The position numbers were made by a program, and so were the translations under genes. Below the pieces are notes generated by a model. The model worked only from the letters and a program-made list of their open reading frames with translations, searched no databases and was not told where the DNA came from. Shown here in pieces: positions 3,007-32,756 of a DNA stretch of 64,000 bases (positions within the stretch are counted from its first letter, which is position 1; every line of letters begins with the position of its first letter). The DNA lies in the NCBI GenBank assembly GCA_041946925.1, contig JBHGBI010000001.1:32884-96883 (forward strand). Direction: 5' to 3'. The DNA is from Syntrophales bacterium. GTDB lineage: Bacteria > Desulfobacterota > Syntrophia > Syntrophales > UBA4778.

Positions 3007-3151
3007 TATCTCTATTTCCTTAATGAAACAAATAAACTAATGGTAAAACATATCAAAATCCTTAAGCTTACACAATTAAAAAGCCTTCAGGACGCGGACG
3101 GTCAAAAAAAGATTGCCAAAAAAAGAGAAATCGTGATAGTTTTATGCATCT

Positions 3152-6215: not shown

Positions 6216-6216
6216 T

Positions 6217-6537
6217 ATGCCGGTTTCGAAAACACTCAGGACGCGAGTCTATTTTGAAGAGCAGGAACGTACAGGGATCAAGCTCTCAACCCTTATCCTC
6301 GTCTCCCTGATCCTGATGGCGGCCATTCTTGTCTATGTCTGGTCTCACATTCATTCCACCGAACTCAAGTACCGGATAGCTAAAGAGGTCAGCATTAAAG
6401 AGAATCTCCTTGAGGAAAACAAGAAACTGAAAGTGGAAATCGCGACCTTGAAATCTCCGAAGAGGATCGAAGCCATTGCCAGGCATCAAATGAATATGCA
6501 GCATCCCGAACGAGAACAGGTTATTTTTCTGAAATGA
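6217..6537 (+). CDS. ftsL: cell division protein FtsL
   Basis: 106 aa with a single TM helix followed by a coiled-coil. It sits between rsmH and ftsI, and its stop overlaps the ftsI start (ATGA). Confidence 0.65.
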   Translation: MPVSKTLRTRVYFEEQERTGIKLSTLILVSLILMAAILVYVWSHIHSTELKYRIAKEVSIKENLLEENKKLKVEIATLKSPKRIEAIARHQMNMQHPEREQVIFLK

Positions 6538-8519: not shown

Positions 8520-8528
8520 GGCCGCCTT

Positions 8529-15119: not shown

Positions 15120-15128
15120 GGGGATTAG

Positions 15129-16214: not shown

Positions 16215-16225
16215 AGGGAGTAAAT

Positions 16226-17614: not shown

Positions 17615-17715
17615 ATTGATTCAAACCAGGAGAAAGGTTGTTCAACAGTCCGCCGGGTGTTAACTTGTTCATAGTTCAGAATTCGGAATTCAATATCTTC
17701 GGCGGGGCATGTAAA

Positions 17716-18642
17716 ATGGCTTTGGATGAGTCGATACAACGGGAACTGAAGATGATCGTGTCCGGCCGCGTTCTCTTTGACGAGCCTATGGACAGGCATA
17801 CGTCCATTGGTGTCGGGGGAAAGGCGGACGCCGTTATCTATCCTTCCGACGCGGATGAACTGGGCCGGATTATCGCCTTCTTGAAATCAAGCGCTATCCC
17901 CTTCATGCCCATCGGCAACTGTACAAATCTGATTGTCAGGGACGCCGGATACCGGGGCGTTCTCGTGTCCCTGCGTTCTCTCAAAGGAATGAGCATTGCC
18001 GGAAGCAGAGGCCATGAGATCGTCGTTTCCGCGGATGCGGGGGTCGCCCTTTTCGATCTCGTGCGGCTGACGGCGGAGAACTCCCTTACCGGGATGGAGT
18101 TTCTGGCGGGCATCCCCGGAAGTGTCGGGGGTGCGGTGAAAATGAATGCGGGCGCTTACGGGCATGAGATGAAGGATACCGTGTGCACGGTTTTTCTGAT
18201 GAACGGCAGCGGCCGGATAAAGAACGCCGGCCGGCATGAGCTCGAATTCGAATACCGCAATCTCGATCTCCCTCAGGATACGGTTATTCTGGGAGCGGAA
18301 TTCCTTCTGAAGAAGGGCTCGGCGGGCGAGATCAGGCAGAGAATCCAGGAGATCCTTGAGGCGAGAAGGAAGAGGCATCCTCTGCGGGACCGCAGCGCCG
18401 GTTCCGTTTTCAAGAACCCGAAAGGCGTTCCGGCCGGCATGATTATAGATGAAGTCGGACTCAAGGGAATGCGGATCGGAGACGCGAAAATCTCGGAGAT
18501 GCATGGGAATTTTATCGTCAATGCGGGGCATGCGAAGGCGGGCGATATTCTTTCGATCATCTCCTTTGTACAGCGGAGAGTGCTGGAGGAGAAGGGGATA
18601 CTGCTGGAACCCGAGGTGCGGATTATCGGTGAGGTGGAATGA
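17716..18642 (+). CDS. murB: UDP-N-acetylenolpyruvoylglucosamine reductase MurB
   Basis: FAD-binding PCMH-type domain (TSIGVGGKAD) and a MurB C-terminal domain. Start set at MALDES; the ORF track extends to 17638. Confidence 0.85.
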   Translation: MALDESIQRELKMIVSGRVLFDEPMDRHTSIGVGGKADAVIYPSDADELGRIIAFLKSSAIPFMPIGNCTNLIVRDAGYRGVLVSLRSLKGMSIAGSRGHEIVVSADAGVALFDLVRLTAENSLTGMEFLAGIPGSVGGAVKMNAGAYGHEMKDTVCTVFLMNGSGRIKNAGRHELEFEYRNLDLPQDTVILGAEFLLKKGSAGEIRQRIQEILEARRKRHPLRDRSAGSVFKNPKGVPAGMIIDEVGLKGMRIGDAKISEMHGNFIVNAGHAKAGDILSIISFVQRRVLEEKGILLEPEVRIIGEVE

Positions 18643-19472
18643 AAAGGTCGCTGAGGGCATCTCTGGAGATAAAACGCAACTGGCTCAGGAGACACTCGAG
18701 GAAAATTTTCCGCGATGTACTAGCCGGCGTGATCATGACAGGGGCGGTGGGTGTCGTCTTTTGTCTTTTGGTGCTCGCCTATAGTCTTGTCCTGAGCGCT
18801 TCTTTCTTCCAGGTTGAAAAGACGGTGGTGACGGGCTGTGAAAAAGTCACCGAAAAAGAAATTCTGGAACTTTCGGGACTGAAACCATCGCAGAATATAC
18901 TGGCTTTGAATACGGGCTTGATGGAACGCCGCATCAAATCCAATCCCTGGATCCAGGAAGTTTCCATTACGAGGAATCTTCCCCGTAACTTACTGATCGA
19001 GATCAAAGAAAGAAAAGCAGTGGCCCTGATCCGCAGGGAAAGCACGCTCTTTTTCATGGACGAAAACGGGACCGTGTTCAAGAAGCTCGACGCCGGTGAG
19101 CGGGCCGATCTTCCGATACTGACGGGGTTCTACGACAGAGGCAAGGAGGATTTGGAACTTATTCGGAAATCGATTGAGCTTCTGGCTTTTCTGTCATCCA
19201 GCAATGATTTTCCGAAGATCGAGAATATATCGGAGATTCAGGGAGATGTGATTTTCGGGTTTTCGCTGTTTGTGGATAACGGGCTCCATATCCAGCTCGG
19301 GTTCGACGATTATGAAAACAAGCTGAGGCGCCTCAAGCCGGTGATGGCGGATCTTGCGAGGAAAAATATGGACGGGTTCCTGAGCATCGATCTGAAGGAT
19401 CCGACAAAAGTCACTGTGCAGAGAAAGAGCGCGCCCGCGTTCCCGAAATTTACGAAGGGATACAGGACGTGA
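18639..19472 (+). CDS. ftsQ: cell division protein FtsQ (POTRA domain)
   Basis: N-terminal TM helix and a POTRA-like region (VEKTVVTGCEKVTEKEILELSGL). It lies between murB and ftsA, and its start overlaps the murB stop (ATGA). Confidence 0.75.
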   Translation: MKRSLRASLEIKRNWLRRHSRKIFRDVLAGVIMTGAVGVVFCLLVLAYSLVLSASFFQVEKTVVTGCEKVTEKEILELSGLKPSQNILALNTGLMERRIKSNPWIQEVSITRNLPRNLLIEIKERKAVALIRRESTLFFMDENGTVFKKLDAGERADLPILTGFYDRGKEDLELIRKSIELLAFLSSSNDFPKIENISEIQGDVIFGFSLFVDNGLHIQLGFDDYENKLRRLKPVMADLARKNMDGFLSIDLKDPTKVTVQRKSAPAFPKFTKGYRT

Positions 19473-19530
19473 TGACCCGGGGCGGGACAGGGGCCGTAAG
19501 GTGTATTGATAAGAAAAGGTGGGTAATTTC

Positions 19531-20757
19531 ATGGCTAAAAGAGGAAATTTGATTGTTGCGCTGGATATAGGGACAACCAAGATATGTGTGATCATAGGCG
19601 AAGTCAGCGATTCCGGCATTGATATAGTCGGAATCGGCTCGCATCCCTCGGAAGGATTGAGGAAGGGTGTGGTCGTCAATATCGACAGCACAATCGAATC
19701 CATCAAGAAGGCGGTGGATGAAGCGGAGCTCATGTCCGGCTGCCGCATCAAATCCGCTTATACCGGAATTGCAGGAGGACATATCAAGAGCTTCAACAGT
19801 TACGGCATCGTCGCGGTGAAGGGGAGTGAAGTCGATGAGCTCGATGTAAAAAGGGCGATCGAGGCAGCTAGGGCGATTGCAATTCCTCTCGATCGGGAGG
19901 TGCTTCACATCCTGCCACAGTACTATATAGTGGATGACCAGGACGGAGTTAAAGACCCGGTGGGCATGTCGGGGGTGCGCCTTGAAGTCAAAGTGCACAT
20001 TGTAACCGGGGCGGTTACTTCCATCCAGAATATCATTAAATCCGTCAACGGCGTGGGACTGGATGTCAATGACGTGATTCTGGAACAACTCGCCGCCAGC
20101 GAGGCGGTCCTGAGTCCGGATGAGAAGGAGTTGGGAGTCGCCCTTGTCGACATCGGGGGCGGCACGACGGATATAGCCGTCTACTCCGAAGGAAGTATCA
20201 AGCATACAGCCGTCCTTCCGCTGGGCGGAAGTTATCTGACCAACGATATCGCCGTTGGGTTGAGGACACCCATGAACGAGGCGGAGAAAGTGAAAATCAA
20301 GTACGGATGCGCATATACTCCCCTGATCCCGCAGGATGAAATGATCGAGGTCCCCAGCGTGGGCGGCCGCGATCCGAGGCGGGTATCGCGCCAGGTGCTC
20401 GGCGGCATTATTGAGCCGCGCATGGATGAAGTCCTTAACCTGGTTTGCAGAGAGATTGTGAAGTCCGGCTATGAGGAAAGGCTTGCCGCGGGCGTCGTCC
20501 TGACGGGCGGGACCGCCCTTCTCGAGGGCATTACGGAATTATCCGAGCAGATATTCAACATGCCTGTAAGGCGGGGCTGCCCCATCGGCATCGGAGGCTT
20601 GACCGAGGTAGTGAACAGCCCTCTTTATGCCACGGGTGTCGGCCTGCTTATTTATGGCAGCAAGTATCAGGCCGGGAATGCATACAGGAAAGGTGAGGGG
20701 AATATTCTGGGAGGAATGGTGAAGAAGCTTCATAGATGGTCTAAAGAACTTTTTTGA
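19531..20757 (+). CDS. ftsA: cell division protein FtsA
   Basis: Actin-like ATPase motifs ALDIGTTKI and DIGGGTTD. The ATG is preceded by AAGGTGGG. Confidence 0.9.
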
Positions 20758-20773
20758 AAAAGGGAGGACTCCT

Positions 20774-21922
20774 ATGTTCGAATTATTTGAAGAAGGGACG
20801 GATACGTCCGCGAGGATCAAGGTAATCGGCGTCGGCGGCGGCGGCGGCAACGCCGTCAACACGATGATTTCGTACAAATTGTGCGGGGTCGATTTTATAA
20901 CGGCGAATACCGATGCCCAGGCTTTGAGGACCTCGCTTTCACCGATGAAAGTCCAGCTCGGAGGAGAGATCACGAAAGGGCTCGGCGCGGGATCAGATCC
21001 AGAAGTGGGCAGGCGCTCGGCTCAGGAATCGCGCGACATGATAGCGTCCGCTCTCGAAAAGTCCGACATGGTTTTTATAACGGCTGGACTGGGGGGCGGG
21101 ACCGGGACAGGAGGCGCTCCCGTTGTCGCGCAGATCGCGAAGGAGATCGGGGCGCTGACAGTCGCCGTCGTGACAAAGCCTTTTCAATTCGAGGGGAAGA
21201 AGAGGGAAAGGCAGGCCGAAAACGGAATAGAGGAATTAAGAGAGATCGTCGATACGCTGATTGTTATTCCCAACCAGAGGCTCCTGAGTCTGGGCGGCAG
21301 AAACATGTCTCTGGTGGAGGCGTTCAAGAAAGCGGATGATATCCTGTATCACGCCGTCAAGGGGATATCAGATCTGATCATCATTCCAGGTCTCATCAAT
21401 CTTGATTTCGCGGACGTCAGGCATATCATGTCGGAAATGGGGCTGGCCCTTATGGGGACAGGCAGTGCCCGCGGAGAAAACCGGGCTGTCGAGGCGGCGC
21501 AGAGAGCCATTTCCTCTCCGCTCCTTGAGGACAATTCCATCCAGGGCGCCCGGGGGGTTCTGCTGAATATTACGGGCGGACCCGATATGACGCTTTACGA
21601 GATCAACGAGGCTTCCAGCCTGATCCAGGCGGAAGCCCATGAAGATGCGAATATCATTTTCGGCACTGTTATTGATGAGAATATGGAAGACGAGATCCGG
21701 ATCACCGTCATTGCAACCGGATTCGAGGAAAACGGGAAGAAGCAGAATCTTTCCAATGTATCGCATTTGAGCAGTTACAAGAAAGAAGACCTGCAAACCC
21801 CGGCCTTTATGAGAAAAGGAAAGCCGGCTGAGGGTCAAAATGTCATCAAGATGGGCTTGATCGATGACAGTGAAGATGTCGATTTCGAAGTCCCGACCTT
21901 TCTGAGGAGACAGGCGGACTAG
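20774..21922 (+). CDS. ftsZ: cell division protein FtsZ
   Basis: Tubulin/FtsZ signatures [11 protein letters not shown] and [11 protein letters not shown], plus the C-terminal conserved peptide [13 protein letters not shown]. Confidence 0.95.
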
Positions 21923-22211: not shown

Positions 22212-22664
22212 ATGAACATCATTTTTTATTCAAAATGCATGCATGGAACGGGAGAGCGGTTGTATAACATGATCGAATCCCTGTTTTTGAAAAAAAAGAT
22301 GGACGTATGCCGTACCCCGGCAGAACTGTCGTTGAGGCTTTGCCAGCCTCTGGACAATTCTCTTGTCGTGATTCTGGTGATTGCGGATCGTGAAGACCTT
22401 TCCAATATACTATCCATGCGTATTCTGCTGCAGGATACCCGAACGGTCCTGGTCCTACCCGACAGGCAGAGCGAGGCACTCGCCGGGAATCTGAACCCGA
22501 GACACCTGGCCTTCGCGGACAGCGAGTATCTGATAGTAGAGATCGCCTCCGTGCTGAAAGCCATGCTGGAAATCATTTATCTCTACAAAAAGGAAGTCGT
22601 CATATCCGGATGGCATAACCGTATCAGACGCTGGATGGCCGACAAGAAGATACAGTTGCATTGA
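22212..22664 (+). CDS. hypothetical protein (possible flavodoxin/receiver-like alpha-beta fold, no phosphoacceptor signature)
   Basis: 150-aa ORF with SD AAAGGAG 5 nt upstream. It shows an alternating hydrophobic-strand/helix pattern (IIFYS, VVILVIAD, TVLVLPD, HLAFAD) and I recognise no family. It is visibly AT-richer than its neighbours. Confidence 0.4.
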   Translation: MNIIFYSKCMHGTGERLYNMIESLFLKKKMDVCRTPAELSLRLCQPLDNSLVVILVIADREDLSNILSMRILLQDTRTVLVLPDRQSEALAGNLNPRHLAFADSEYLIVEIASVLKAMLEIIYLYKKEVVISGWHNRIRRWMADKKIQLH

Positions 22665-23415
22665 TCTTTCCCGCCCCTCGCCTCACCACCTTCTGTTTTC
22701 TCGCCCTGACCGCCAGAATGCCGGCGGAGCCGGAGCCGAGCAGGAGAAGAGTAGCCGGCTCAGGTACCGGCTGGTTGTCGCCGGGGCCGGGGTCCCCTCC
22801 CGTGCCTGGAAGGATGCCCGCATCAAGGGGTGTGCCTGTTGCGGAATTTGCGCCTGGATCGGGGCTTGTGCCTGTGTTCGGGATGATGTTCGTATCGGGA
22901 GAAGACCCCGTGGAGGTCGGAGGAGGACCTGTGCCGGGGCTCTCGCCTGCGGGATCCGGTGCAGGCAGTGAAGACAGGTAATCGGCCGTTGACAAAGCTG
23001 GGGCGGATAACCGCATGGACGCCGGTCCTCCGATGCCTGATCCATATCCCGTGACCGAAACATCTGGGGTATTCCCGGCATGTAAGGAGGGGGGGTCAAG
23101 GATGTTGTGATTCAAATCGCTTCCCGGTGAATTGAAGCCGATATTTGCCCTTTGCCTCTGAGGATGCAATCGGTTCATTAGCAGGTCCACGAGGGCCGCG
23201 TCGTAAAAAAGGCCCCTATAGGTCGAAGGCATTTCCGGATCGAATCGCTCTGGGTATCCTGCCGGGGATTCAAGCGGGGCTGGAGCAATATGGACGCTTT
23301 TCACACGGCCAACCGGATTCACCTGCCCGCTCGAAGCGACCGGCGGCGGATCCGAAGTGACGGGATAAAGAAGCAGCAAAGCTCCCAGCACGGGTAAGGT
23401 AAAATATTTTTTCAT
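22624..23415 (-). CDS. PEP-CTERM sorting-domain protein, secreted, Pro/Thr/Gly-rich
   Basis: Start chosen at MKKYFTLPVLGALLLLYPV (signal peptide). The C-terminus carries VPEPATLLLLGSGSAGILAVRARKQK, i.e. a PEP motif, a TM helix and a basic cluster. An extra 21-aa tail follows. Confidence 0.65.
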   Translation of the reverse strand: MKKYFTLPVLGALLLLYPVTSDPPPVASSGQVNPVGRVKSVHIAPAPLESPAGYPERFDPEMPSTYRGLFYDAALVDLLMNRLHPQRQRANIGFNSPGSDLNHNILDPPSLHAGNTPDVSVTGYGSGIGGPASMRLSAPALSTADYLSSLPAPDPAGESPGTGPPPTSTGSSPDTNIIPNTGTSPDPGANSATGTPLDAGILPGTGGDPGPGDNQPVPEPATLLLLGSGSAGILAVRARKQKVVRRGAGKINATVSSCRPSSV

Positions 23416-23602
23416 CGGGGCTGTCCGTTCTTCAGTCGATACCGGCAGGCCATCCTGCCGGAATGCAGGCGAGACCATAATACTATCCCGGAACTCCGCC
23501 ACGCTATCGGTAGATTTCATGGTTTTGTTCTTATTTTGAAGAGGCCCGATCTACGGAAAAAGTATCAAAGGATTGAAGCCCGCATCATCCTCTTCGGCGA
23601 GT

Positions 23603-24514
23603 TCAGAATGCAAATGTGAATCCTACGCCGCCGTACAAGAATGAACTGCCATTATCCGCGGGGTCGGCTTTCTTGCCGCGGCCCTTTATTTCATTGCCGG
23701 CGTCGCTTGTAAGCGGGAATGAACAGGCGATCATCGGGGTTACGGTCATGTGCTTCGCTGCCGCGATGGGCAGCGACACGGTTATGAGCCCGTCATGAAG
23801 GCCGTCGAACTTGTCGTTTGTCGCCTGGCCGCTGTCATTGAATTTTGGATAGCCTCCATAGCCTCCGCCCGCATTGAAGAGTGCCGCGTCTGCATAATTG
23901 CTTTTCAGGTAGCCGGCGTACGCCCCCAGTTTCAGCGAAACGGCTTTGCTCAGTTCGAAGACATGAGAGATGCCCAGAAGGGCGTAGTAGTAATGGTAGT
24001 GGTCGATTTCATCGTAAACAGTCAGAGTCGGGTTCAGAAGAGTATTCAGACTCACTGTAACGAATATCTCCTGGGCGTCCGGAGGTTTTGTGCCGCCGGG
24101 ATTGACCGCGCCGAGGCCGTAATATATGTATCCCATACCCGCGTTCAATAAGCCGAAGGTCTTGGTATAGGAGAGAGTCAAATCGGTTTCAGTCCAGGTA
24201 GTAGAATAATTGATATTCGAAGTCGAATAAGGCTTCGTATCCAGGTTGCCCCAGAGATTGACGCCGAAGCCCTTGTATCCAGCGGTCATTGAGGGCTGGA
24301 TAACGATACTGTTGCGCGTGTTCTCATATCCCCGCCAGACGTATTTGCTGAGGGCGCAGGCCGTAAAATCAAAGGTGGGTCTGTCTTCCGCCGCCTGTAC
24401 TGTTACGGGAGCTCCGGAAGGCTCTGCGGACGTCTTCACTTCTCCGGCCATGGCCGGGATTGTTGTCGATGCCAGGAGGATAATAGCTGCAAAAAGACAT
24501 TTGAATCCTTTCAT
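23603..24514 (-). CDS. outer-membrane beta-barrel putative porin (TorF/Gcw_chp-like)
   Basis: Start at MKGFKCLFAAIILLASTTIPAMA (signal peptide). Alternating beta-strand pattern, SKYVWRGY near the N-terminus, and a C-terminal aromatic residue (GVGFTFAF). Confidence 0.55.
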   Translation of the reverse strand: MKGFKCLFAAIILLASTTIPAMAGEVKTSAEPSGAPVTVQAAEDRPTFDFTACALSKYVWRGYENTRNSIVIQPSMTAGYKGFGVNLWGNLDTKPYSTSNINYSTTWTETDLTLSYTKTFGLLNAGMGYIYYGLGAVNPGGTKPPDAQEIFVTVSLNTLLNPTLTVYDEIDHYHYYYALLGISHVFELSKAVSLKLGAYAGYLKSNYADAALFNAGGGYGGYPKFNDSGQATNDKFDGLHDGLITVSLPIAAAKHMTVTPMIACSFPLTSDAGNEIKGRGKKADPADNGSSFLYGGVGFTFAF

Positions 24515-24719
24515 GATTGGTTTCTCCTTTTCTTCCTTTTCCCCTTGCAAAATTCTTTCACGTCGATCTGGTATTTTTGTATCCTGTGATTCAGGATGCG
24601 CTTTGTTGTGCCCAGGATTTCCGCGTGTTTCCACTGTTCTTTTTATTCCTTTTGATTCGGGTTCCATCGAGGGATTTCCTCCTGATCGAATTCCGCAGGC
24701 GCAAAATACAGGCCGGATA

Positions 24720-25061
24720 TCAGCCGATTGCCTTCTCCCCGCGTTCGCTCGTCCGGATCCGTATCACGTCTTTGAGATCCATTACGAAAATCTTCCCGTC
24801 GCCTATCTCCGCCGTGCGCGCTCCCTTGATCAGCGCGTTAATCGTGGGCTCCACGAAATCCTCGTTTACGGCTATCTCGATTTTCACTTTCTTCAGGAGG
24901 CTGCCGACTTCCTTGGCGCCCCTGTATATCTCTGTTACGCCCTTTTGCCTGCCGCGTCCCAGGACGTTGGATACTGTCATCAGGCCCACATCTGCATCCT
25001 CGAGGGCTTTTTTGACGTCTTCCAGTTTGTGCGGTTGTATGATGGCTATTATGTATTTCAT
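24720..25061 (-). CDS. glnK: P-II family nitrogen regulator (GlnK-type, amtB-linked)
   Basis: 113 aa that aligns colinearly with GlnB/GlnK (T-loop [15 protein letters not shown]; C-terminal GDGKIFV). It sits 10 nt downstream of amtB. Confidence 0.9.
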
Positions 25062-25071
25062 GCGATTCCTC

Positions 25072-26301
25072 CTATTCCAGAACAGTATATGCAGCTTCGT
25101 TGTGCTGGGTCAGATCCAGCCCGATTGTCTCGTCTTTCAGCGTCACCCTCATCCCGATCAGCGCGTCGACGAACTTGTACAGTATCCAGGTGATCGCCGC
25201 GGCATAGGCGAAGCAGGAAATGAAATACAAACCCTGGGTCAGCAGGAGATGGGGATTGCCGAAGAGCAAGCCGTCGGCGCCTGCCTCGTTGACGGCCTTT
25301 TCGGCGAAGATGCCGGTGGCCAGAGTGCCCCATGTTCCGCCGACGCAGTGGACGCCGAAGACATCGAGGGCGTCGTCATAGCCCAATTTGGGTTTCAATA
25401 CGGTTACCGCGTAGAAGCAGAGTATGCCGGCTATGACGCCGACAGGGATGGCTGCGAGCGGGCTGACGAATCCGCAGGCGGGCGTGATGGCGACGAGCCC
25501 CGCGACAGCACCGGAGACCACGCCGAGTACAGTGGGCGCTCCGTTCTTCAACCATTCCATGAAGCCCCATGTCAAACCCGCGGCCGCTGTCGCCGTATTC
25601 GTGGTCACAAATGCGTTTGCCGCGATACCGTCCGCCGCGAGCGCGCTTCCGGCATTGAATCCGAACCAGCCGAACCAGAGCAATGCCCCTCCCAGGACCG
25701 TGAAGGGGAGGTTATGAGGGGCAAATGATGCATTGTTGTACCCGATCCTTCTTCCGATAAGCAGGCACATGACCATTGCAGAGATGCCGGAGCTCACGTG
25801 AACAACTATTCCACCTGCGAAATCGAGGGCCCCGAGATTTTTCAGCCAGCCGCCGTCGCCCCAGACCCAATGGGCGATGGGGTCATAGACAAAAGTTGTC
25901 CATAAAAGGGTGAAGATCACGAAAGCGGAAAATTTGATTCTCTCGGCAAAGGCCCCGATAATCAGTGCGGGCGTTATAATCGCGAACATGCACTGGAAGA
26001 TCATGAAAGCAAGGTGGGGTATGGTCTTCGAGTACACGTCGAGCGGCTTCGCTCCGACGCCTACAAGACCTGCCCAATCCAGACCTCCAATCATGCCCCT
26101 GATGTCGGGTCCGAAGGATAGGGAGTACCCATAAAGAACCCATTGCAGTCCTATGAGGCACATGATGAAAAAACATTGCATCAAAAGAGAAAGGACGTTT
26201 TTTCTTCTCGCCATGCCGCCATAGAAAAAAGCCAGACCCGGTGTCATAATCAAGACCAGGGCCGAAGCGGCCAATACCCACGCTGTGTCGCCTGAATTCA
26301 T
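25072..26301 (-). CDS. amtB: ammonium transporter
   Basis: 409-aa polytopic protein with Amt signatures ([24 protein letters not shown]). Confidence 0.9.
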
Positions 26302-26712: not shown

Positions 26713-27735
26713 ATGAAAGCAGCCATAATGGGCGCCGGCTCGCTCGGGACGATCGCCGGGGCTCTGATCACGAAAAACGGCGGGGATGTCGTTTTAATCG
26801 ACGCCAACAAGGAGCATGTGGAGGCGTTGAATAAGAACGGCGCGACAGTAACGGGCAAAATGCAGTTGAACGTGCCTGTACGGGCCATAACACCTGACCG
26901 TATGGAAGGCACTTACGACATTGTCCTCTATATGGTGAAGCAGACCCATAATGAGCAGGCACTGAGATCGCTGCTCCCTCATCTGCATGACCGCAGTGTC
27001 GTATGTGTCATGCAGAACGGAGTTCCTGAAGAGGCCGTTGCGGCATGTGTCGGTAAAGAAAGGGTTGTCGGCTGCGCGGTCGGCTGGGGAGCCACCTGGT
27101 TGAAGCCGGGTGTTTCCGAACTTACTTCCGAGGTGGCCAAGATGACCCTGGATGTGGGGGAATTGGAGGGTCACTCGAGCTGGCGCGTGCAGATGGCGGC
27201 CGATATCCTGAGAAAGATCTGTCCTACGGAAATTACGGAGAACCTCCAGGGTATCCGCTGGTCAAAGCTGTTGATTAATGCTACATTTAGTGGGATGTCT
27301 GCGGTCCTCGGCTGTACTTACGGGGACATACTCGAAAATGAAAAAGCGCTTACCTGCGCGGCTGTTATCGCCAATGAAATCATAGCTGTGGCGAGAGGTC
27401 TCGGCGTAATCCTGGAGCCGATCCAGGGAGTCGATCTGCAGATCCTTGCCTTCAGGAACAAGACGGAAATGATGGGGAAGTTTCCCATTTACCAGGCTGT
27501 CTTCGGTCCTCATCGCCTTCTTAAGGCCAGCATGCTTCAGGACCTTGAGAAAGGGCTGAAGACGGAAATCGGGGCGATCAACGGGGTAGTATGCGAAAAG
27601 GGCAGGAAGGTTGCAGTGGCGACCCCGGTGAATGATACGGTTGTGGAAATTGTCACGGGAATCGAGGCGGGTAAGTACAGACCGGTCTTCAGAAATATCG
27701 ATTTATTCAAACTTCCGCAGATACCGGAAAAATGA
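26713..27735 (+). CDS. ketopantoate reductase (PanE/ApbA) family NAD(P)-dependent oxidoreductase
   Basis: Start at the ATG after GAAGGAGG. MKAAIMGAGSLGTIAGALITKNGGDVVLID is a Rossmann N-terminus, and the ApbA_C-like second half is present. Confidence 0.75.
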   Translation: MKAAIMGAGSLGTIAGALITKNGGDVVLIDANKEHVEALNKNGATVTGKMQLNVPVRAITPDRMEGTYDIVLYMVKQTHNEQALRSLLPHLHDRSVVCVMQNGVPEEAVAACVGKERVVGCAVGWGATWLKPGVSELTSEVAKMTLDVGELEGHSSWRVQMAADILRKICPTEITENLQGIRWSKLLINATFSGMSAVLGCTYGDILENEKALTCAAVIANEIIAVARGLGVILEPIQGVDLQILAFRNKTEMMGKFPIYQAVFGPHRLLKASMLQDLEKGLKTEIGAINGVVCEKGRKVAVATPVNDTVVEIVTGIEAGKYRPVFRNIDLFKLPQIPEK

Positions 27736-27763: not shown

Positions 27764-28687
27764 ATGAAAGAGAAAGCAGTTGTTACGGCGGCAATTACGG
27801 GAAGCATCCATACGCCGACAATGTCGGAGTATCTGCCCATCACGCCGAAGCAGATCGCGGACGAGGCCGTTCGGGCCCGCGAGGCGGGTGCGGCGGTCTG
27901 CCACATCCACGCGCGCAACCCTGAGACGGGGATGCCAGTGCCCGACGTAAACCTCATGAAGGAGATCGTCTCAGATATCAAGAGACGTTGCGATATCGTG
28001 GTATGCATCACTACTGGAGGCGGCCTGGGTATGACCGTCGAGCAGCGCGTCGCTCCGGTTACACTCTATAAACCGGAGCTTGCCTCTTTCAATGCGGGCT
28101 CGATCAATTTCGCGCTCTTTCCGGTGATCCCCCGCTTCAAGGAATTCAAGCATCCCTGGGAGAAGCAGTACCTGGCGATGAGCGAAGATTTCATCTTCCC
28201 CAACACCTTTAAATCGATGCGGGAGTACTGTGTTATCTTCAATGAGAACGGGACGAAGCCGGAATTCGAGATCTACGATTCGGGGATGGTGAACAATGTC
28301 GCCTTCATGATCGAGGCGGGGTACGTGAAGAAGCCCGTTTACATCCAGTTCGTCATGGGGGTCCTGGGCGGGATCACCCCGAGTTCGGAAAACCTTCTTT
28401 TCATGGTGGACTACGCGAAGAAGCTGATCGGCGATTTTGAGTTTTCGGTCTGCGTGGCGGGCCGGGCGCAGTTTCCGATCTGCACGCAGTCGCTCCTTAT
28501 AGGCGGCAATGTCCGGGTGGGTCTCGAGGACAATCTCTACCTGGAGAAGGGGCAGATGGCGAAGAGCAATGCCGAGCAGGTGGCGAAAATCGTGCGTATC
28601 GCCCGCGAACTCGGGATCGAGCCGGCCACCCCGGATGAGGCCAGGAAGATTCTCGGCTTGAAGGGTATGGACAAAGTGAATTTCTGA
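27764..28687 (+). CDS. beta-keto acid cleavage enzyme (BKACE / 3-keto-5-aminohexanoate cleavage enzyme family, DUF849)
   Basis: Start after AGGAGG. The sequence VVTAAITGSIHTPTMSEYLPITPKQIADEAVRAREAGAAVCHIHARNPETG is the typical BKACE N-terminus. ~307 aa TIM barrel. Confidence 0.8.
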   Translation: MKEKAVVTAAITGSIHTPTMSEYLPITPKQIADEAVRAREAGAAVCHIHARNPETGMPVPDVNLMKEIVSDIKRRCDIVVCITTGGGLGMTVEQRVAPVTLYKPELASFNAGSINFALFPVIPRFKEFKHPWEKQYLAMSEDFIFPNTFKSMREYCVIFNENGTKPEFEIYDSGMVNNVAFMIEAGYVKKPVYIQFVMGVLGGITPSSENLLFMVDYAKKLIGDFEFSVCVAGRAQFPICTQSLLIGGNVRVGLEDNLYLEKGQMAKSNAEQVAKIVRIARELGIEPATPDEARKILGLKGMDKVNF

Positions 28688-28857
28688 CGAATACGTCCAA
28701 AAGCCTGGCCGGATCTTCTTGACAAGAATGCCGAGTTGAAGGAAAGTAGCGGCATGCGTTCTTTGGTAAGTAAAACATACTTACAAATTTAGGGTATCGC
28801 TGCTGAACGAGGCTGAGGCTCAACGAAATAATTTTTTTCTCACAAAGGAGTCGTGTC

Positions 28858-30303
28858 ATGATCGGAATAACATCTTACGGAGCGTACATACCCCGCTACA
28901 GGCTGAATCGCAAAGTGATTTTTGAGATGATGGGCTGGTTTAACCCGGCGACAGCCGCCGTGGCCAGAGGGGAGAAGGCCGTGGCGAATTGTGACGAGGA
29001 CAGCATCACCATGGCCGTCTCTGCGGCCATAGACTGTATGAACGGCGGGAAAAGAGAAAGCGTGGACGGCGTTTACCTGGCCTCCACATCACTGCCTTTC
29101 GCGCAAAGGCAGAATGCGGTCATAGTTTCAGAGGCGCTTGATTTCAAGGCGGGCATACGCAGCGCAGACGTGGCGGGCTCGCTTAAGGCAGGTACGACGG
29201 CGCTTCTTGCCGCTCTGGATGCGGCTGGCAGCGGCCAGGCCCGGCAGTTCCTCGTCGCGGCCAGCGAAGCGAGAGTCGGAAAGCCGGGAAGCAATCAGGA
29301 GCACACATTCGGAGATGGCGCCGCAGCCCTCTTGGTGGGCCGTGAAGGAGTGATAGCCGAATACAAGGGTTCGTATTCCGTCTCTCACGACTTCATTGAT
29401 TACAGGCGCTTGAATGTGGAGAAGTTCGAACACGGTTGGGAAGAGCGGTGGATACGGGAAGAAGGCTACGGGAAGATCATACCCGAAGCGGCGGCGGGAC
29501 TTGCGAAAAAGTATAATCTGAAAGTCGCCGACTTCGCGAAAATCGTTGTCGGCTGTCCAGTGGCGGCGCTTGTCGCAAGCCTTGGGAAGGCCATGGGAGC
29601 GAAACCGGAGCAGATGGAGGACAACATGGCGTCGACAGTCGGGGATACCGGCGCCGCACTGCCGCTGATGATGTTCACGGCGGCGCTGGAGAAGTCCAAG
29701 CCTGGCGACCGGATTCTTGTCCTGAGCTATGGGAGCGGGGCCGATGCCCTCTGGTTTGAAGTCACACCGGAAATAGAGAAAGCGCGCGACAGGAAAGGAA
29801 TAGGCGGACATCTTTCATTGAAGAGAGAGCTTGCGAACTACGGAAAATACCTCGTTTTCCGCGATTTGATACCCCTGGAAGTGGGTATCCGTGGCGAGGA
29901 GATAGCGCCGATGGCGATGTCGGTTCTGTACAGGGAGGGAAAGACTATTTCCGCCCTGGTCGGTTCGAAATGCCGCGCCTGTGGGACGCCTCAGTATCCG
30001 CCGCAGAAGATCTGCGTGAATCCGCAGTGCGGCGCCGTGGGGGATATGGAACCTTATCGTTTTTCCGATAAAGTCGGAACTCTTGCATCCTATACGGGAG
30101 ACAATCTGGCGTTCAGTCTGGATCCGCCGGCGATATACGGGCTTGTGGATTTTAAAGAAGGGGGGAGGCTTTTTCTGGACCTGACGGACTGCTCATTGAA
30201 GGACCTGTGGGTAGGGATGCCGGTTGTCATGACCTTCCGGAGAAAATACGCGGACGTCAGGCGTGCGATATTTGGCTATTACTGGAAAGCTATTCCGGTA
30301 TAG
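28858..30303 (+). CDS. HMG-CoA synthase-like (thiolase-fold) protein lacking the nucleophilic Cys, fused to a C-terminal DUF35 Zn-ribbon/OB-fold domain
   Basis: The N-terminus MIGITSYGAYIPRYRL and its general colinearity resemble archaeal-type HMGCS. The archaeal GSESHPY and FACKAGT positions read ASTSLPF and GSLKAGT here. The C-terminus has CRACG-x10-C-x4-C followed by an OB-fold-like segment (DUF35). Confidence 0.7.
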   Translation: MIGITSYGAYIPRYRLNRKVIFEMMGWFNPATAAVARGEKAVANCDEDSITMAVSAAIDCMNGGKRESVDGVYLASTSLPFAQRQNAVIVSEALDFKAGIRSADVAGSLKAGTTALLAALDAAGSGQARQFLVAASEARVGKPGSNQEHTFGDGAAALLVGREGVIAEYKGSYSVSHDFIDYRRLNVEKFEHGWEERWIREEGYGKIIPEAAAGLAKKYNLKVADFAKIVVGCPVAALVASLGKAMGAKPEQMEDNMASTVGDTGAALPLMMFTAALEKSKPGDRILVLSYGSGADALWFEVTPEIEKARDRKGIGGHLSLKRELANYGKYLVFRDLIPLEVGIRGEEIAPMAMSVLYREGKTISALVGSKCRACGTPQYPPQKICVNPQCGAVGDMEPYRFSDKVGTLASYTGDNLAFSLDPPAIYGLVDFKEGGRLFLDLTDCSLKDLWVGMPVVMTFRRKYADVRRAIFGYYWKAIPV

Positions 30304-30446: not shown

Positions 30447-31649
30447 ATGGCTGCAGGAATCAAGAACGAAGTAGCTATCATCGGTATGGGTTGTACAAAG
30501 TTCGGGGAGCTTTGGGACAAGAGCGGGACGGATCTCATTGTGGAGGCGTTCCAGGAGGCTATCGAGGACGCGGGTATTGAGAAGAAGGATATCGGGGCTG
30601 TCTGGTTTACCAACTGTTTCGAGGAGATCAATTTCGGGAAGAGCGCCATTCCCCTGCCGAAGACGTTGAAACTTCCGTTTGTCCCGGTGACAAGGGTCGA
30701 AAACTTCTGCGCGAGCGGCTCCGACGGGTTCCGCAATGCCTGCTATGCCGTGGCGTCAGGGGCATGCGACATCGCCATGGCACTCGGCGCCGAAAAGCTG
30801 AAGGACACGGGCTACGGCGGGCTGCCCGATTTCGGGACTGTTATGGGAACGGAAAACAGGATGCTCTTCCCTAATGTTACCGCGCCGGGCGGATTCGCCA
30901 TGACCGCGACCGCTTATTTTTCGAAATACGGACTCTCGGCGCAAGAGGGCAAGAGGGCGCTTGCCCACATCTCCGTCAAGAGCCATCACAACGGCGCGCT
31001 GAACCCGAAAGCCCACCTCCGGCGGGAGGTTACAATAGAGCAGGTCATGCAGGCTCCCATTGTGGCGTGGCCGCTCGGCCTCTTCGACTGCTGCGGCGTG
31101 AGTGATGGGGCGGCATGCGCCATCATCTGCCGGGCCGATAAGGCCAGGCAGTTCAGAAAAGATCCCGTTTACGTGAAAGCCCTCCAGATCGCGGCCACAT
31201 CGGGAGAAGAGCTCGCTTACCGGGATTGGGACATCGCCCACATCGAGACGACTTACAGGGCGGGAATACAGGCCTACAAGGAAGCAGGGATCACCAAGCC
31301 GAGAGAGGAAATAAGCATGATGGAGGTCCATGACTGCTTTTCGATCACCGAGTTCGTTACTTACGAAGACCTGCAGATATCGCCCCGCGGGAAGGCAAGG
31401 GATGATGTGGAATCCGGATTTTACGACCTGGACGGGAAAATACCCTGCCAGCCGGACGGCGGTCTCAAGTGCTTCGGTCACCCCATCGGGGCCTCGGGGC
31501 TGAGGATGATCTATGAGATGTATAAACAGCTCCAGGGAAAGGCGGACAAAAGGCAAATCAAAAATCCCCGTATCGGTCTCACCCACAACCTGGGCGGGTT
31601 TCCCTCGATGAGTGTTGTGAGCGTGGTCATTGTGGGGAATGAGCTTTAA
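30447..31649 (+). CDS. thiolase (SCP-x / DUF35-partner type acetyl-CoA C-acyltransferase)
   Basis: 400 aa with catalytic Cys in VENFCASGS and a C-terminal GGLKCFGHPIGASG motif. Confidence 0.85.
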   Translation: MAAGIKNEVAIIGMGCTKFGELWDKSGTDLIVEAFQEAIEDAGIEKKDIGAVWFTNCFEEINFGKSAIPLPKTLKLPFVPVTRVENFCASGSDGFRNACYAVASGACDIAMALGAEKLKDTGYGGLPDFGTVMGTENRMLFPNVTAPGGFAMTATAYFSKYGLSAQEGKRALAHISVKSHHNGALNPKAHLRREVTIEQVMQAPIVAWPLGLFDCCGVSDGAACAIICRADKARQFRKDPVYVKALQIAATSGEELAYRDWDIAHIETTYRAGIQAYKEAGITKPREEISMMEVHDCFSITEFVTYEDLQISPRGKARDDVESGFYDLDGKIPCQPDGGLKCFGHPIGASGLRMIYEMYKQLQGKADKRQIKNPRIGLTHNLGGFPSMSVVSVVIVGNEL

Positions 31650-31667: not shown

Positions 31668-32756
31668 ATGGGGAAGGTCAGTATCGTCCGCACGGCCGGG
31701 GAAGTCGGGGAGGCGCTGATCCGCGCTCTCGACCTGATTGGCGGTCCTGAACAATTCATGGACCATAATGACGTGATCATGCTGAAGCCGAATCTGAACG
31801 GGACGGAAGGGTTCACGGACATCCGCCTTGCGGAATCGATGATCCGCCTGATTCTCGATTTCCGGGTGAAGAGATTGCTCATTGCGGAATCCTGCTTCGG
31901 AAATCCCGGCATGACGGACATGTTTTTCAACAAGACCGGATACTCCGGCCTCGCGAAAAGATACGGGATTGATCTGATAAATCTGAATAAGTCGGAAGCG
32001 GTGGAAACCAGGGTGAAAAAGCCTTTGATCCTTGACAGGCTGAAGATAGCCCGCGAGGTCTTTGAGGTGGACCGGATCATCAACATGCCGGTCATGAAAG
32101 TCCACTACGCAACCGGCGTTACGCTGTCCTTGAAGAATCTGAAAGGGCTGCTGGTGGGGGATGAGAAAAGGCGCTTTCATGAGGTCGGTCTCGATAGGGC
32201 CATCGTCGACTTGAACAACACTATAAAACCCGACCTGAACATCATCGATTGCATATCCTGCATGGAGAGAATGGGTCCGAGAGGGGGCGATGTGGTAAAC
32301 TTGAACCTGCTTATCGCCGGAAGAGACTGCGCCGAGGTCGATTACGTCGGAATGGAGATCATGGGTTACCGCCCGGATGAGGTCAGGCATTTTCTTTATT
32401 ATATAAACGAAAACAACGTGGACGTGAACGGCATTGAGGTGGCCGGAGAGAAAATCAGCGATGTGAAATACAAATTCAAGAAGGCGAAGCTGGAGAATAT
32501 CCTGCCCGGATCGTTCAGGATCAGGAACAGGAATGCTTGTAGTTCGTGCATGAATGCACTGCTCCTGTCCTGTCAGATTCTCGAAAAACCCGCCTCTCGC
32601 GATGTCCTTTTTTACCTGGGTTCGGACCTCGATGAAGAAAAAGCCGATGCAATTACCATTGCGTTCGGAAATTGCTGTACAACGAGGGCGGACCGCAGGA
32701 TCAGGGGATGCCCCCCGTATCCTTTCGAATTGAAGAGGATCCTGGAGGGAAGTTAG
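31668..32756 (+). CDS. DUF362 domain-containing protein
   Basis: The N-terminal KVSIVRT...DVIMLKPNLNG pattern is typical of DUF362. The C-terminal part is Cys-rich (CSSCMNALLLSC; GNCC; GCPPYP). Confidence 0.6.
   Translation: MGKVSIVRTAGEVGEALIRALDLIGGPEQFMDHNDVIMLKPNLNGTEGFTDIRLAESMIRLILDFRVKRLLIAESCFGNPGMTDMFFNKTGYSGLAKRYGIDLINLNKSEAVETRVKKPLILDRLKIAREVFEVDRIINMPVMKVHYATGVTLSLKNLKGLLVGDEKRRFHEVGLDRAIVDLNNTIKPDLNIIDCISCMERMGPRGGDVVNLNLLIAGRDCAEVDYVGMEIMGYRPDEVRHFLYYINENNVDVNGIEVAGEKISDVKYKFKKAKLENILPGSFRIRNRNACSSCMNALLLSCQILEKPASRDVLFYLGSDLDEEKADAITIAFGNCCTTRADRRIRGCPPYPFELKRILEGS

Follow-up and report, generated by a model that had tools for sequence, protein, structure and literature searches.

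A single open frame in the window, the 64,000-nucleotide stretch of contig JBHGBI010000001.1 from a Syntrophales bacterium that was analysed here, encodes (stop codon included) a protein of 481 aa that, as judged from its sequence, is a catalytically dead HMG-CoA synthase (HMGS)-like domain fused to a DUF35 module. The frame starts with an ATG preceded by an AAGGAG ribosome-binding site and is followed on the same strand by the gene of a thiolase, its presumed catalytic partner (Table 1). We propose, with a probability of about 75%, that the 481-aa protein, without taking part in catalysis itself, is a subunit of a heteromeric 3-ketoacyl-CoA thiolase of the degradative kind. Its gene is most likely an ordinary further example of the published bacterial ACAT/HMGS-DUF35 complex, in which it would have a scaffold role.

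Table 1. Positions in the window of the fusion gene, its domains and key codons, and the neighbouring genes.
Feature	Position	Strand	Evidence
Ketopantoate-reductase (KPR)-family NAD(P) dehydrogenase	26713..27735	+	PF02558 and PF08546; TIGR00745, 186 bits
Beta-keto-acid cleavage enzyme (BKACE), immediately upstream of the fusion gene	27764..28687	+	PF05853, 350 bits; best PDB match 3lot_A
Fusion gene, putative dead HMGS-like domain plus DUF35	28858..30303	+	ORF; Pfam/NCBIfam; 6esq alignment; homologues; AlphaFold2/Foldseek
HMGS-like (thiolase-superfamily) domain, residues 1-345	28858..29892	+	Alignment with 6esq_I and PhlA-type chains; Foldseek
Former catalytic positions T77, L109, G232, D263	29086-29088, 29182-29184, 29551-29553, 29644-29646	+	Alignment with 6esq_I
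DUF35 rubredoxin-like zinc ribbon, residues 365-393	29950..30036	+	PF12172, 34.5 bits; Cys372/375/386/391
Zinc-ribbon codons Cys372, Cys375, Cys386, Cys391	29971, 29980, 30013, 30028	+	
DUF35 OB-fold domain, residues ~405-481	30070..30300	+	PF01796, 37.8 bits; 6esq_E match
ACAT/SCP2-type thiolase, presumed catalytic partner	30447..31649	+	NF004810; 6esq_A match; motifs; pairing
Thiolase motifs Cys88 (NFCASG), His295 (HDCF), His345 (GHP)	30708-30710, 31329-31331, 31479-31481	+	
DUF362 protein, 18 nt downstream of the thiolase	31668..32756	+	PF04015, 148 bits

The N-terminal 338 aa of the fusion protein align end to end with two models of archaeal HMG-CoA synthase, NF003274 and TIGR00748, and their scores (222.4 and 168.7 bits) miss the respective equivalog cutoffs for HMG-CoA synthase (244 and 353.35). 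The protein is modelled confidently by AlphaFold2 (pLDDT 90.3, pTM 0.92), and Foldseek superposes the modelled N-terminal domain on the archaeal HMG-CoA synthase (HMGCS) 6et9_I with a TM score of 0.93 and an rmsd of 1.9 A. The archaeal-type HMGS character of the first ~345 aa, initially read by eye, is borne out by the model alignment and this superposition. The same domain finds PhlA-type subunits among its best matches by sequence (9skh_A, E 5e-40) and superposes on them as a model (9skh_C, 4e-32). In the C-terminal part, zf-ChsH2 (PF12172, residues 365-393) and OB_ChsH2_C (PF01796, residues 405-461), which together make up DUF35, score 34.5 and 37.8 bits against Pfam gathering scores of 23.2 and 27.1, respectively, residues 361-481 match the stand-alone DUF35 subunit 6esq_E (E 5.9e-12), and the model has beta-strands over residues 368-480. 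The two Pfam families and the match to 6esq_E confirm the predicted four-Cys ribbon followed by an OB domain. All of the 120 close homologues have the four Cys, and in an alignment with distant representatives they are retained in 122-129 of the 133 sequences. A database protein that is 100% identical to the fusion protein is annotated as 'MAG: hydroxymethylglutaryl-CoA synthase family protein [Syntrophales bacterium]'.

In a HMMER alignment with the solved archaeal HMGCS 6esq_I, the E-C-H-N tetrad of the latter (E82, C114, H238 and N270) corresponds to T77, L109, G232 and D263 of the fusion protein. With none of the four catalytic residues left, the HMGS-like domain is considered a pseudo-enzyme. 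The original prediction had paired 'GSESHPY' with 'ASTSLPF' (Glu82 to Thr77) and 'FACKAGT' with 'GSLKAGT' (Cys114 to Leu109) by hand; both pairings are exact, the HMMER alignment rules out the offset that had been feared for them, and the loss is wider than the Glu and Cys noticed at that time, since His238 and Asn270 are gone as well. Glu at the Glu column and Cys at the Cys column are found in none of the 120 close homologues, and neither residue is among the eight commonest listed for its column in the alignment of the query with 132 distant full-length representatives, where Thr takes the former Glu position in 113 of the 133 sequences. The change from Asn to Asp (GDTG) is common to the fusion protein and PhlA. 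Conservation differs little between the HMGS-like core and the DUF35 part, whether in close relatives (0.64 and 0.66-0.68, respectively) or in distant ones (0.38 and 0.38-0.43), which argues that the HMGS-like domain is maintained and not decaying.

The fused architecture belongs to a large family. Database proteins that match the fusion protein at E <= 1e-5 number 2,627, the best 120 of which are mostly full-length fusions of ~480 aa. At E <= 1e-30 the protein matches 613 clusters formed at 50% identity. The best 150 of these include 132 full-length fusions, distant representatives that are less than 50% identical to each other. The ~480-aa form is present in hundreds of independent assemblies and on complete plasmids of cultured Sphingomonas, Variovorax, Azoarcus, Novosphingobium and Rhodococcus, and the fused proteobacterial homologues that could be reached are full length and 32-44% identical to the fusion protein of the window. 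Some relatives (P0122, P0123 and P0137) have an SDR dehydrogenase, an SCP2 lipid-carrier domain or both attached to the fusion. The concern that an error of sequencing (as considered in the original prediction) or of assembly had merged an HMGS-like gene with a DUF35 gene draws on the fact that DUF35 is a separate polypeptide in archaea, as had been stated there and as agrees with the stand-alone 6esq_E, and also in PhlACB and MucABC. This reading is refuted: the frame is continuous, the ~480-aa form recurs in most of the 120 close homologues, the 132 distant ones, 49 genome loci and finished plasmids, the junction segment (residues 321-347) is conserved as much as the domains, and another fused HMGS-DUF35 protein has already been expressed and assayed (PMC12960953). 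The fusion is therefore genuine.

The neighbouring thiolase retains Cys88, His295 and His345 and is, as predicted, catalytically intact. It scores 643 bits with NF004810, the model of acetyl-CoA acetyltransferase (cutoff 403), and its best PDB match is 6esq_A (2.5e-61) of the archaeal thiolase/HMGCS/DUF35 complex, which places it with the thiolases that form complexes. The match to BbsB is lower (7pxp_C, 6e-40; 159.6 bits with the BbsB model NF053628, the cutoff of which is 750), and PhlC and Ltp2 are matched only at ~1e-24 to 3e-27 and 1e-22 (6ok1_A), respectively. Of 53 testable related copies of the fusion gene, 52 have the thiolase gene downstream in the same orientation, 50 of them with a gap of 16-339 nt, and the partner thiolases of the relatives keep Cys88 (53/53), the residues of HDxF (51/51) and GH (50/50). 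The pairing spans MAGs of Syntrophales, Desulfobacterales, Bacillota, Chloroflexi, Armatimonadota and Spirochaetota as well as cultured Proteobacteria. The suggestion that the fusion protein is a pseudo-enzyme scaffold for this thiolase is supported by the loss of the tetrad, the intact thiolase, the 52/53 pairing and a homologous type of complex for which thiolysis alone has been shown in vitro (PMC12960953).

That complex, PfACAT/HMGS-DUF35 of Pseudomonas fluorescens, consists of a thiolase and a fused HMGS-DUF35 protein that lacks the tetrad (PMC12960953, Nat Commun 2026;17:2196). In vitro, it cleaves acetoacetyl-CoA and yields neither HMG-CoA nor acetoacetyl-CoA, and its activity is nearly abolished by the H294Y replacement in HDxF; 1,001 'minimal' bacterial loci of its kind were counted, and it was read by the authors as an evolutionary intermediate with no defined role or pathway (PMC12960953). 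The window pair resembles it, as far as the published description goes, in carrying the HMGS-like and DUF35 parts on one polypeptide without the tetrad, in a thiolase with the catalytic Cys (CxS), HDxF and GHx, and in the absence of PKS/NRPS genes nearby. It differs in belonging to another phylum, in a MAG of Syntrophales, and in following the genes of a BKACE and a dehydrogenase. The same three modules also make up the archaeal complex 6ESQ. The archaeal DUF35, however, is a separate chain, and the archaeal HMGCS is active and pulls the condensation catalyzed by the thiolase towards mevalonate, whereas its catalytic residues Glu82, Cys114, His238 and Asn270 are replaced in the window.

In the Friedel-Crafts C-acyltransferases PhlACB (PDB 5M3K and 5MG5), the PhlACB-type acyltransferase 9SKH/9SKM and MucABC (9VBO and 9VBT), the likeness is to the HMGS-like subunit, which lacks the catalytic Glu and Cys and has Asp for Asn. 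In these complexes, it is the obligatory non-catalytic partner of the thiolase-fold subunit, and DUF35 bridges both. Catalysis by PhlACB involves residues of PhlC only, while PhlA is without the Cys and the Glu (PMC6392133). A cavity of PhlA beside the PhlC active site is large enough for acetyl-CoA (PMC6392133), and the former active-site loops of the window family are still strongly conserved, with new residues (S76-T77-(S/T)78-x-P80, as STT-x-P; S108-x-(K/R)110-x-G112-T113, as S-L-(K/R)-x-G-T; E195 and R197 in the WEERW region; and P234). Together with the equal conservation of the two parts, these observations are what a repurposed HMGS-like domain would explain, one that performs chemistry without a thioester (as an aldolase, decarboxylase or hydrolase) or offers a ligand-binding or regulatory site and so makes the complex bifunctional. 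The conserved loops could also mean a retained ligand-binding or other function instead of pure scaffolding, and they were counted against the scaffold reading for that reason. Repurposing is unlikely, in our estimate: the four catalytic residues are gone family-wide, the P. fluorescens complex has thiolase activity only and depends for it on the thiolase His (PMC12960953), and mutagenesis and a soaked structure of PhlACB implicate only PhlC (PMC6392133). The sole candidate for a new nucleophile, Cys233, which adjoins the position of the former His and is present in 115 of the 120 close homologues, was rejected as it is kept in only 10 of the 133 sequences of the wider alignment. The precedent once cited for such chemistry, Ltp2, is an aldolase without the nucleophilic Cys; it belongs to the thiolase subunit lineage, and its counterpart in the window keeps Cys88. 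The Ltp2-like aldolase or decarboxylase offered as an alternative in the original prediction is therefore not supported, on two counts, the intact thiolase and a dead domain without a conserved replacement nucleophile.

The likeness to PhlA might also be taken to indicate that the window pair is itself a CoA-independent C-acyltransferase of the PhlACB/MucABC kind, acting on phloroglucinol-like or polyketone compounds. PhlA-type chains are among the best matches of the N-terminal domain, GDTG is shared, and the BKACE encoded upstream fits NF053538, the model of '3,5-dioxohexanoate:acetyl-CoA acetone transferase', the substrate of which is an intermediate of phloroglucinol breakdown. The substrate of this BKACE is uncertain because its score (432.4 bits) exceeds the equivalog cutoff (430) by only 2 bits. 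The BKACE-family lyase CsTAL converts 3,5-dioxohexanoate to acetoacetate and acetoacetyl-CoA, and its gene cluster contains a thiolase too (PMC10470551); NF053538 and CsTAL are alike in the name of their substrate. A Friedel-Crafts function is very unlikely, as the loss of the HDxF His marks PhlC and MucB, which serve phenolic or tetramic-acid acceptors, whereas the window thiolase has HDCF, is far more ACAT-like and matches the archaeal thiolase far above PhlC (211 versus 90-99 bits). PhlACB and MucABC have a separate DUF35 (such as PhlB) and are encoded in secondary-metabolite clusters (phl with a type III PKS, muc with an NRPS-PKS), neither of which applies to the window pair: its DUF35 is fused, and neither type III PKS nor NRPS-PKS genes are found near it in the window. 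Phloroglucinol reductase, cyclohydrolase and PKS genes are likewise absent from the window, none of 80 loci with BKACEs that are 78-92% identical contains the fusion-thiolase pair, and relatives of the pair sit in beta-oxidation clusters. The phloroglucinol reading was rejected on these grounds.

The DUF35 module of BbsAB and of ChsH1-ChsH2(DUF35)-Ltp2 also partners an SCP2-type thiolase-fold subunit, and BbsB retains HDxF (PMC12960953). BbsA, however, is a stand-alone DUF35 without an HMGS-like subunit, and the DUF35 partner of Ltp2 is fused to a MaoC hydratase, whereas that of the window is fused to an HMGS-like domain. The scaffold role suggested in the original prediction stands. BbsA and Ltp2, the systems used for comparison there, are not the nearest ones; the closest known are 6ESQ, PhlACB, MucABC and, above all, PfACAT/HMGS-DUF35. 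The novelty implied there does not hold either, as the same architecture was published early in 2026 (PMC12960953). A further parallel is the edc (estradiol) cluster of Novosphingobium tardaugens, where an 'HMG-CoA synthase' gene, EGO55_13555, lies beside the thiolase gene EGO55_13550 and was assigned no step by the authors (PMC7793797). There, too, an HMGS-like gene adjoins a thiolase gene in a catabolic, beta-oxidation-type cluster, though in an aerobic steroid degrader and with a protein likened here by its description. Plasmid p3 of Novosphingobium sp. ES2-1 encodes a full-length fused homologue (34% identity) in a cluster composed similarly to edc.

In the window, the pair is accompanied by genes for a KPR-like dehydrogenase, for which ATG 26713 behind AAGGAGG is the likely start (the mechanical ORF start is GTG 26665), for the BKACE and for DUF362, DoxX, PII and Amt proteins. 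This arrangement is not conserved. A BKACE gene is found in only one of 55 fusion loci, on the other strand and ~5 kb off, and the KPR-like and DUF362 genes never recur beside the pair in related loci. Since the genes of the nearest fusion homologues (82% and 77% identity) also have different neighbours, the idea of a conserved five-gene operon was dropped. The non-conserved adjacency to the BKACE and the absence of a defined role for the published complex in its authors' view were counted against our main reading. The pairs of relatives are flanked by genes for enoyl-CoA hydratase, 3-hydroxyacyl-CoA dehydrogenase, acyl-CoA dehydrogenase, ETF and acyl-CoA ligase. For instance, the pair of Sphingomonas comes after SDR and MaoC hydratase genes, and that of Novosphingobium is embedded in a steroid-type cluster. 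In contrast to the view of the complex as an intermediate without a pathway, the relatives surveyed here thus sit in beta-oxidation clusters. Several related loci carry sigma-54 activators. A sigma-54 promoter upstream of 28858 was considered and rejected, as inspection by eye of 28688-28857 revealed no convincing -24/-12 element; a scan for sigma-70 promoters and terminators performed no better than on shuffled sequences. A literature search returned nothing on the fusion in Syntrophus or in anaerobic beta-oxidation.

Syntrophales run beta-oxidation-type pathways in both directions, thiolase reactions are reversible, and the window thiolase most resembles the acetoacetyl-CoA thiolase of archaea, a biosynthetic enzyme. 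These points suit a complex that mainly condenses, making acetoacetyl-CoA or longer 3-oxoacyl-CoA for reverse beta-oxidation, storage polymer or lipid synthesis, with its dead HMGS domain as the remnant of an ancestral channelling complex. We regard a condensing function as quite unlikely: with the HMGS inactive, the unfavourable condensation would lack an exergonic step to drive it, acetyl-CoA was not condensed to acetoacetyl-CoA by the P. fluorescens complex (PMC12960953), and the genes near the pair in relatives have catabolic functions (acyl-CoA ligase, ABC transporter and acyl-CoA dehydrogenase/ETF, besides clusters of the steroid type).

Based on the archaeal, PhlACB and MucABC complexes, we propose for the degradative thiolase of the window that the HMGS-like domain forms a dimer that packs against the thiolase dimer, and that the covalently tethered DUF35 zinc ribbon and OB domain may bridge both subunits and close a shared substrate/CoA cavity. 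Catalysis would be performed by the thiolase alone, with Cys88 as the acyl-accepting nucleophile assisted by His295 (HDxF) and His345 (GHP), so that 3-oxoacyl-CoA and CoA would be converted to acetyl-CoA and a shortened acyl-CoA. By analogy with the homologous type of complex, the activity would be thiolysis only, without condensation (PMC12960953). The upstream BKACE may use acetyl-CoA to yield acetoacetate and an acyl-CoA; with 3,5-dioxohexanoate as the substrate, the latter would be acetoacetyl-CoA, as in the reaction of CsTAL, whose gene cluster with its thiolase speaks for such a link (PMC10470551). The acyl-CoA could then be split by the thiolase complex, which would restore the acetyl-CoA that the BKACE needs. 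We infer the physical complex formation of the pair, the direction of its reaction in vivo and its functional link to the BKACE.

A more tentative extension of this proposal, which we consider doubtful, is that the dead HMGS/DUF35 protein acts as the hub around which a catabolic assembly with substrate channelling is organised; the shared CoA/pantetheine cavity would be kept in it, and the 3-oxoacyl-CoA of an upstream enzyme would be passed directly to the thiolase. If both this and a four-gene module were true, the dehydrogenase, BKACE, scaffold and thiolase would form a closed acetyl-CoA-recycling module for degrading 3-hydroxy/3-oxo acids, such as phloroglucinol-derived triacetate, in anoxic peat or sediment, and the fusions with SDR dehydrogenase and SCP2 in relatives would serve the same purpose.

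The architecture, the loss of the tetrad and the restriction to thiolysis were already known from the complex published in January 2026 (PMC12960953), and by itself the finding in the window adds little to it. It had also been remarked on as a puzzle in 2020 that an 'HMG-CoA synthase' should lie within catabolic clusters. What is added is context: the fused pseudo-enzyme family is large, its gene is almost invariably followed by that of its thiolase, and the pair occurs in beta-oxidation-type settings both in anaerobes (Syntrophales and Desulfobacterales) and in aerobic degraders of steroids and aromatic compounds. The size of the family, the near-invariable pairing with the thiolase and these neighbourhoods argue that ACAT/HMGS-DUF35 complexes are working catabolic thiolases and not evolutionary leftovers. 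Such fusions should not be annotated as HMG-CoA synthases, nor should a mevalonate pathway be deduced from them in these genomes.

The fusion is encoded by an open reading frame of 481 codons that starts with ATG downstream of an AAGGAG ribosome-binding site, and a 100% identical protein, labeled as a "hydroxymethylglutaryl-CoA synthase family protein," is found in the public collection on a 212-kb contig of a Syntrophales MAG. In NCBIfam, the equivalogs for archaeal HMG-CoA synthase align over their whole length to residues 1-338, but the scores fall below both cutoffs (222 vs. 244 and 169 vs. 353); the Pfam matches to the N-terminal part are weak and only of the KAS-III type. As originally predicted, the C-terminus is a DUF35 region with a four-cysteine ribbon (Cys372, 375, 386, and 391), both Pfam halves of which exceed their gathering scores. 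The AlphaFold2 model, built with 113 homologues as input, is confident (pLDDT 90.3, pTM 0.92), and by Foldseek its N-domain superposes on archaeal HMGCS (TM 0.93, rmsd 1.9 A) and also matches PhlA-type subunits (9skh, 5mg5) and MucA.

In the HMMER alignment with the archaeal HMGCS chain 6esq_I, GSESHPY corresponds to ASTSLPF (Glu82 to Thr77) and FACKAGT to GSLKAGT (Cys114 to Leu109), the same residue pairs as in the earlier alignment by hand. Counted along this alignment, His238 is replaced by Gly232 and Asn270 by Asp263, so nothing remains of the E-C-H-N tetrad as given in PMC12960953. Among the 120 best homologues, neither Glu nor Cys occurs in its column (Thr replaces Glu in 90) and the His column holds A, S, P, or G, while the ribbon cysteines are invariant. 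Glu, Cys, and His are also absent from their columns in 132 distant full-length fusions, judged for Glu and Cys by the eight commonest residues at each column.

These 132, with 33-52% identity, come from the best 150 matches when 1.84 billion cluster representatives were searched exhaustively with HMMER, which yielded 3,286 clusters at E <= 1e-3, 613 of them with E <= 1e-30. In the public protein collection, 2,627 proteins match at E <= 1e-5, and the best 120 of them, 57-100% identical, are mostly full-length fusions of about 480 aa. The same fusion occurs at 32-44% identity on finished plasmids of Sphingomonas, Variovorax, Azoarcus, Novosphingobium, Rhodococcus, and others, and conservation is about the same in the HMGS-like core as in the DUF35 part, with a junction no less conserved than either. 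Two genes joined by a sequencing error, or an assembly artefact, are excluded by this recurrence and by the conserved junction; the fused gene is real and is maintained by selection. One fused homologue, on a Sphingomonas paeninsulae plasmid (44% identity), has only the first of the four ribbon cysteines, so metal binding by the ribbon may be dispensable in some family members.

The next gene encodes a 400-aa thiolase that scores 643 against NF004810, the NCBIfam equivalog for acetyl-CoA acetyltransferase (cutoff 403). Its closest solved relative is 6esq_A, the thiolase of the archaeal thiolase/HMGCS/DUF35 complex (2.5e-61), followed by BbsB (6e-40), whereas PhlC matches only at 1e-24 to 3e-27. 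The motifs NFC88AS, H295DCF, and G344H345P are present, in agreement with the prediction of a catalytically intact neighbor. In a survey of 55 related loci (6 exact look-ups and 49 from a one-genome-per-species scan), 52 of the 53 fusion copies with downstream room are followed on the same strand by a thiolase that shares over 55% identity with that of the window, with a gap of 16-339 nt in 50 copies, and all aligned partner thiolases keep the Cys and the HDxF and GH residues. On a 795-kb metagenome contig (L002), gene calling splits the partner thiolase into ORFs of 281 and 111 aa with overlapping tblastn pieces; the cause is a frameshift or else a misassembly. Two Chloroflexi MAGs (L042 and L048) each carry two tandem fusion-thiolase pairs in a stretch of roughly 9 kb, with an enoyl-CoA-hydratase-like gene between the pairs; this arrangement suggests paralogous complexes with different substrates.

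Coordinates of the features discussed
Feature	Location or length	Strand	Remark
Ketopantoate-reductase (KPR)-family dehydrogenase	26713-27735	+	first cluster gene
BKACE (beta-keto-acid cleavage enzyme)	27764-28687	+	second cluster gene
Fusion	28858-30303	+	third cluster gene
Thiolase	30447-31649	+	fourth cluster gene
DUF362 protein	31668-32756	+	fifth cluster gene
zf-ChsH2	fusion residues 365-393		DUF35 half (Pfam)
OB_ChsH2_C	fusion residues 405-461		DUF35 half (Pfam)
Rest of the neighborhood	12563-21922; 22624-24667; 24720-26301		housekeeping
L136, S. paeninsulae plasmid	7001-8443		fused homologue
L042, Chloroflexi MAG	838-3509; 6490-9169		tandem pairs
L048, Chloroflexi MAG	402-3073; 6053-8730		tandem pairs
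L002, metagenome contig	9475-10682		split thiolase
L137, Novosphingobium sp. ES2-1 plasmid p3	135596-150960		catabolic cluster
P0122	722 aa		extended relative, outside the window
P0123	911 aa		extended relative, outside the window
P0137	800 aa		extended relative, outside the window

Systems of this kind have been characterized. In the solved PhlACB structure, the HMGS-like PhlA has Gly115 for Cys and Cys83 for Glu, and the functional dodecamer requires PhlA and the DUF35 protein PhlB, although the catalytic residues come from PhlC only (PMC6392133). The MucABC structure was published in January 2026, and mining in the same study returned 1,030 bacterial HMGS + ACAT + DUF35 loci, 1,001 of them without secondary-metabolism genes (PMC12960953). 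The characterized representative, from P. fluorescens, has a tetrad-less HMGS fused to DUF35 and an ACAT that retains Cys, HDxF, and GHx; the complex cleaves acetoacetyl-CoA, makes neither HMG-CoA nor acetoacetyl-CoA, and loses nearly all activity upon H294Y substitution in HDxF (PMC12960953). The window locus has all sequence-level features of the P. fluorescens type and lacks the features that define active HMGCS, PhlACB/MucABC, Ltp2, and BbsAB. The intact HDxF motif and the gene context both contradict a PhlACB-like acyltransferase role. Operation in the biosynthetic direction would have no driving step and contradicts the published in vitro result.

We propose that the fusion would contribute a thiolase-fold dimer that does not itself catalyze, along with the tethered DUF35 as a bridge, both of which would assemble with the thiolase dimer, and that Cys88, with His295 and His345, would carry out thiolysis of 3-oxoacyl-CoA, a profile carried over by analogy from the published complex type. 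The original reading of the fusion as a pseudo-enzyme scaffold is supported by the tetrad loss, the intact thiolase, their near-constant pairing, and the published thiolysis-only complex. The dead domain may retain some function, since its former active-site loops are still conserved; however, the family has no conserved nucleophile in place of the lost one, and in the published work activity is attributed to the thiolase alone. The aldolase or decarboxylase once offered as an alternative to the scaffold is not supported.

Beta-oxidation genes surround the pair in relatives (enoyl-CoA hydratase, 3-hydroxyacyl-CoA dehydrogenase, acyl-CoA dehydrogenase, ETF, acyl-CoA ligase, and ABC transporters), often close to a sigma-54 activator; in Sphingomonas, SDR and MaoC hydratase genes lie upstream. 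In Syntrophales-type loci (L001, L002, L004, and L006), sigma-54-dependent activators with PAS or response-regulator domains are found upstream near the pair; none adjoins the window cluster. Some relatives (P0122, P0123, and P0137) carry SCP2, SDR + SCP2, or SDR at the C-terminus of the fusion; the SDR + SCP2 arrangement is like that of peroxisomal multifunctional enzyme 2, which suggests that lipophilic substrates are beta-oxidized. In L137, the pair lies inside a steroid/estrogen-type catabolic cluster with genes for an indolepyruvate:ferredoxin-oxidoreductase-family protein, VOC proteins, acyl-CoA dehydrogenase, SDR, enoyl-CoA hydratases, an Ltp2-like lipid-transfer protein with its own DUF35, P450, and FadD3. 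The fusion there is apparently the counterpart of the unexplained "HMG-CoA synthase" beside a thiolase in the estradiol (edc) cluster of N. tardaugens, for which condensation was doubted in 2020 (PMC7793797). The neighborhoods and SDR/SCP2 extensions therefore favor a working catabolic role over a function-less intermediate and argue for complexes that work in beta-oxidation-type catabolism.

The five plus-strand genes of the window cluster lie between opposite-strand PII/Amt (upstream) and DoxX (downstream). For the KPR-like dehydrogenase, whose mechanical ORF start is GTG 26665, ATG 26713 is the more likely start, judging from AAGGAGG upstream and a GxGxxG motif directly after it. The DUF362 protein has a Cys-rich C-terminal part; its gene begins 18 nt past the thiolase stop and does not recur beside the pair in other loci. 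Elsewhere, the window carries a dcw cluster for cell wall and cell division (murD-like, ftsW, murG, murC-like, murB, ftsQ, ftsA, ftsZ) and, on the minus strand, genes for a PEP-CTERM protein, a 354-aa ORF without Pfam match, and the PII and ammonium-transporter pair.

The BKACE scores just above the cutoff of the NCBIfam 3,5-dioxohexanoate:acetyl-CoA transferase equivalog (432.4 vs. 430), and its closest PDB entry, 3lot_A, is an uncharacterized structural-genomics protein. The characterized 3,5-dioxohexanoate enzyme CsTAL forms acetoacetate and acetoacetyl-CoA and is likewise encoded in a cluster with a thiolase gene (PMC10470551). A subsequent thiolase step would restore the acetyl-CoA used by the BKACE, so the juxtaposition with the pair is biochemically sensible and a functional link in the window is plausible. 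However, the pair is absent from all 80 loci (L056-L135, mostly contigs bearing JGI metagenome identifiers) with 78-92% identical BKACEs, and a BKACE lies near the fusion in just 1 of the 55 fusion loci; given this non-conserved adjacency, we take the link as local rather than defining. Most BKACE loci have an HCDH-like dehydrogenase directly upstream, like the TfD + TAL pair in the C. scatologenes phloroglucinol cluster, whereas the window has the KPR-family dehydrogenase there.

The kind of system is thus already described, and the window locus adds a member from an anaerobic lineage. Its interest lies in why the thiolase has a full-length pseudo-enzyme partner and in the possibility that this partner channels substrate.
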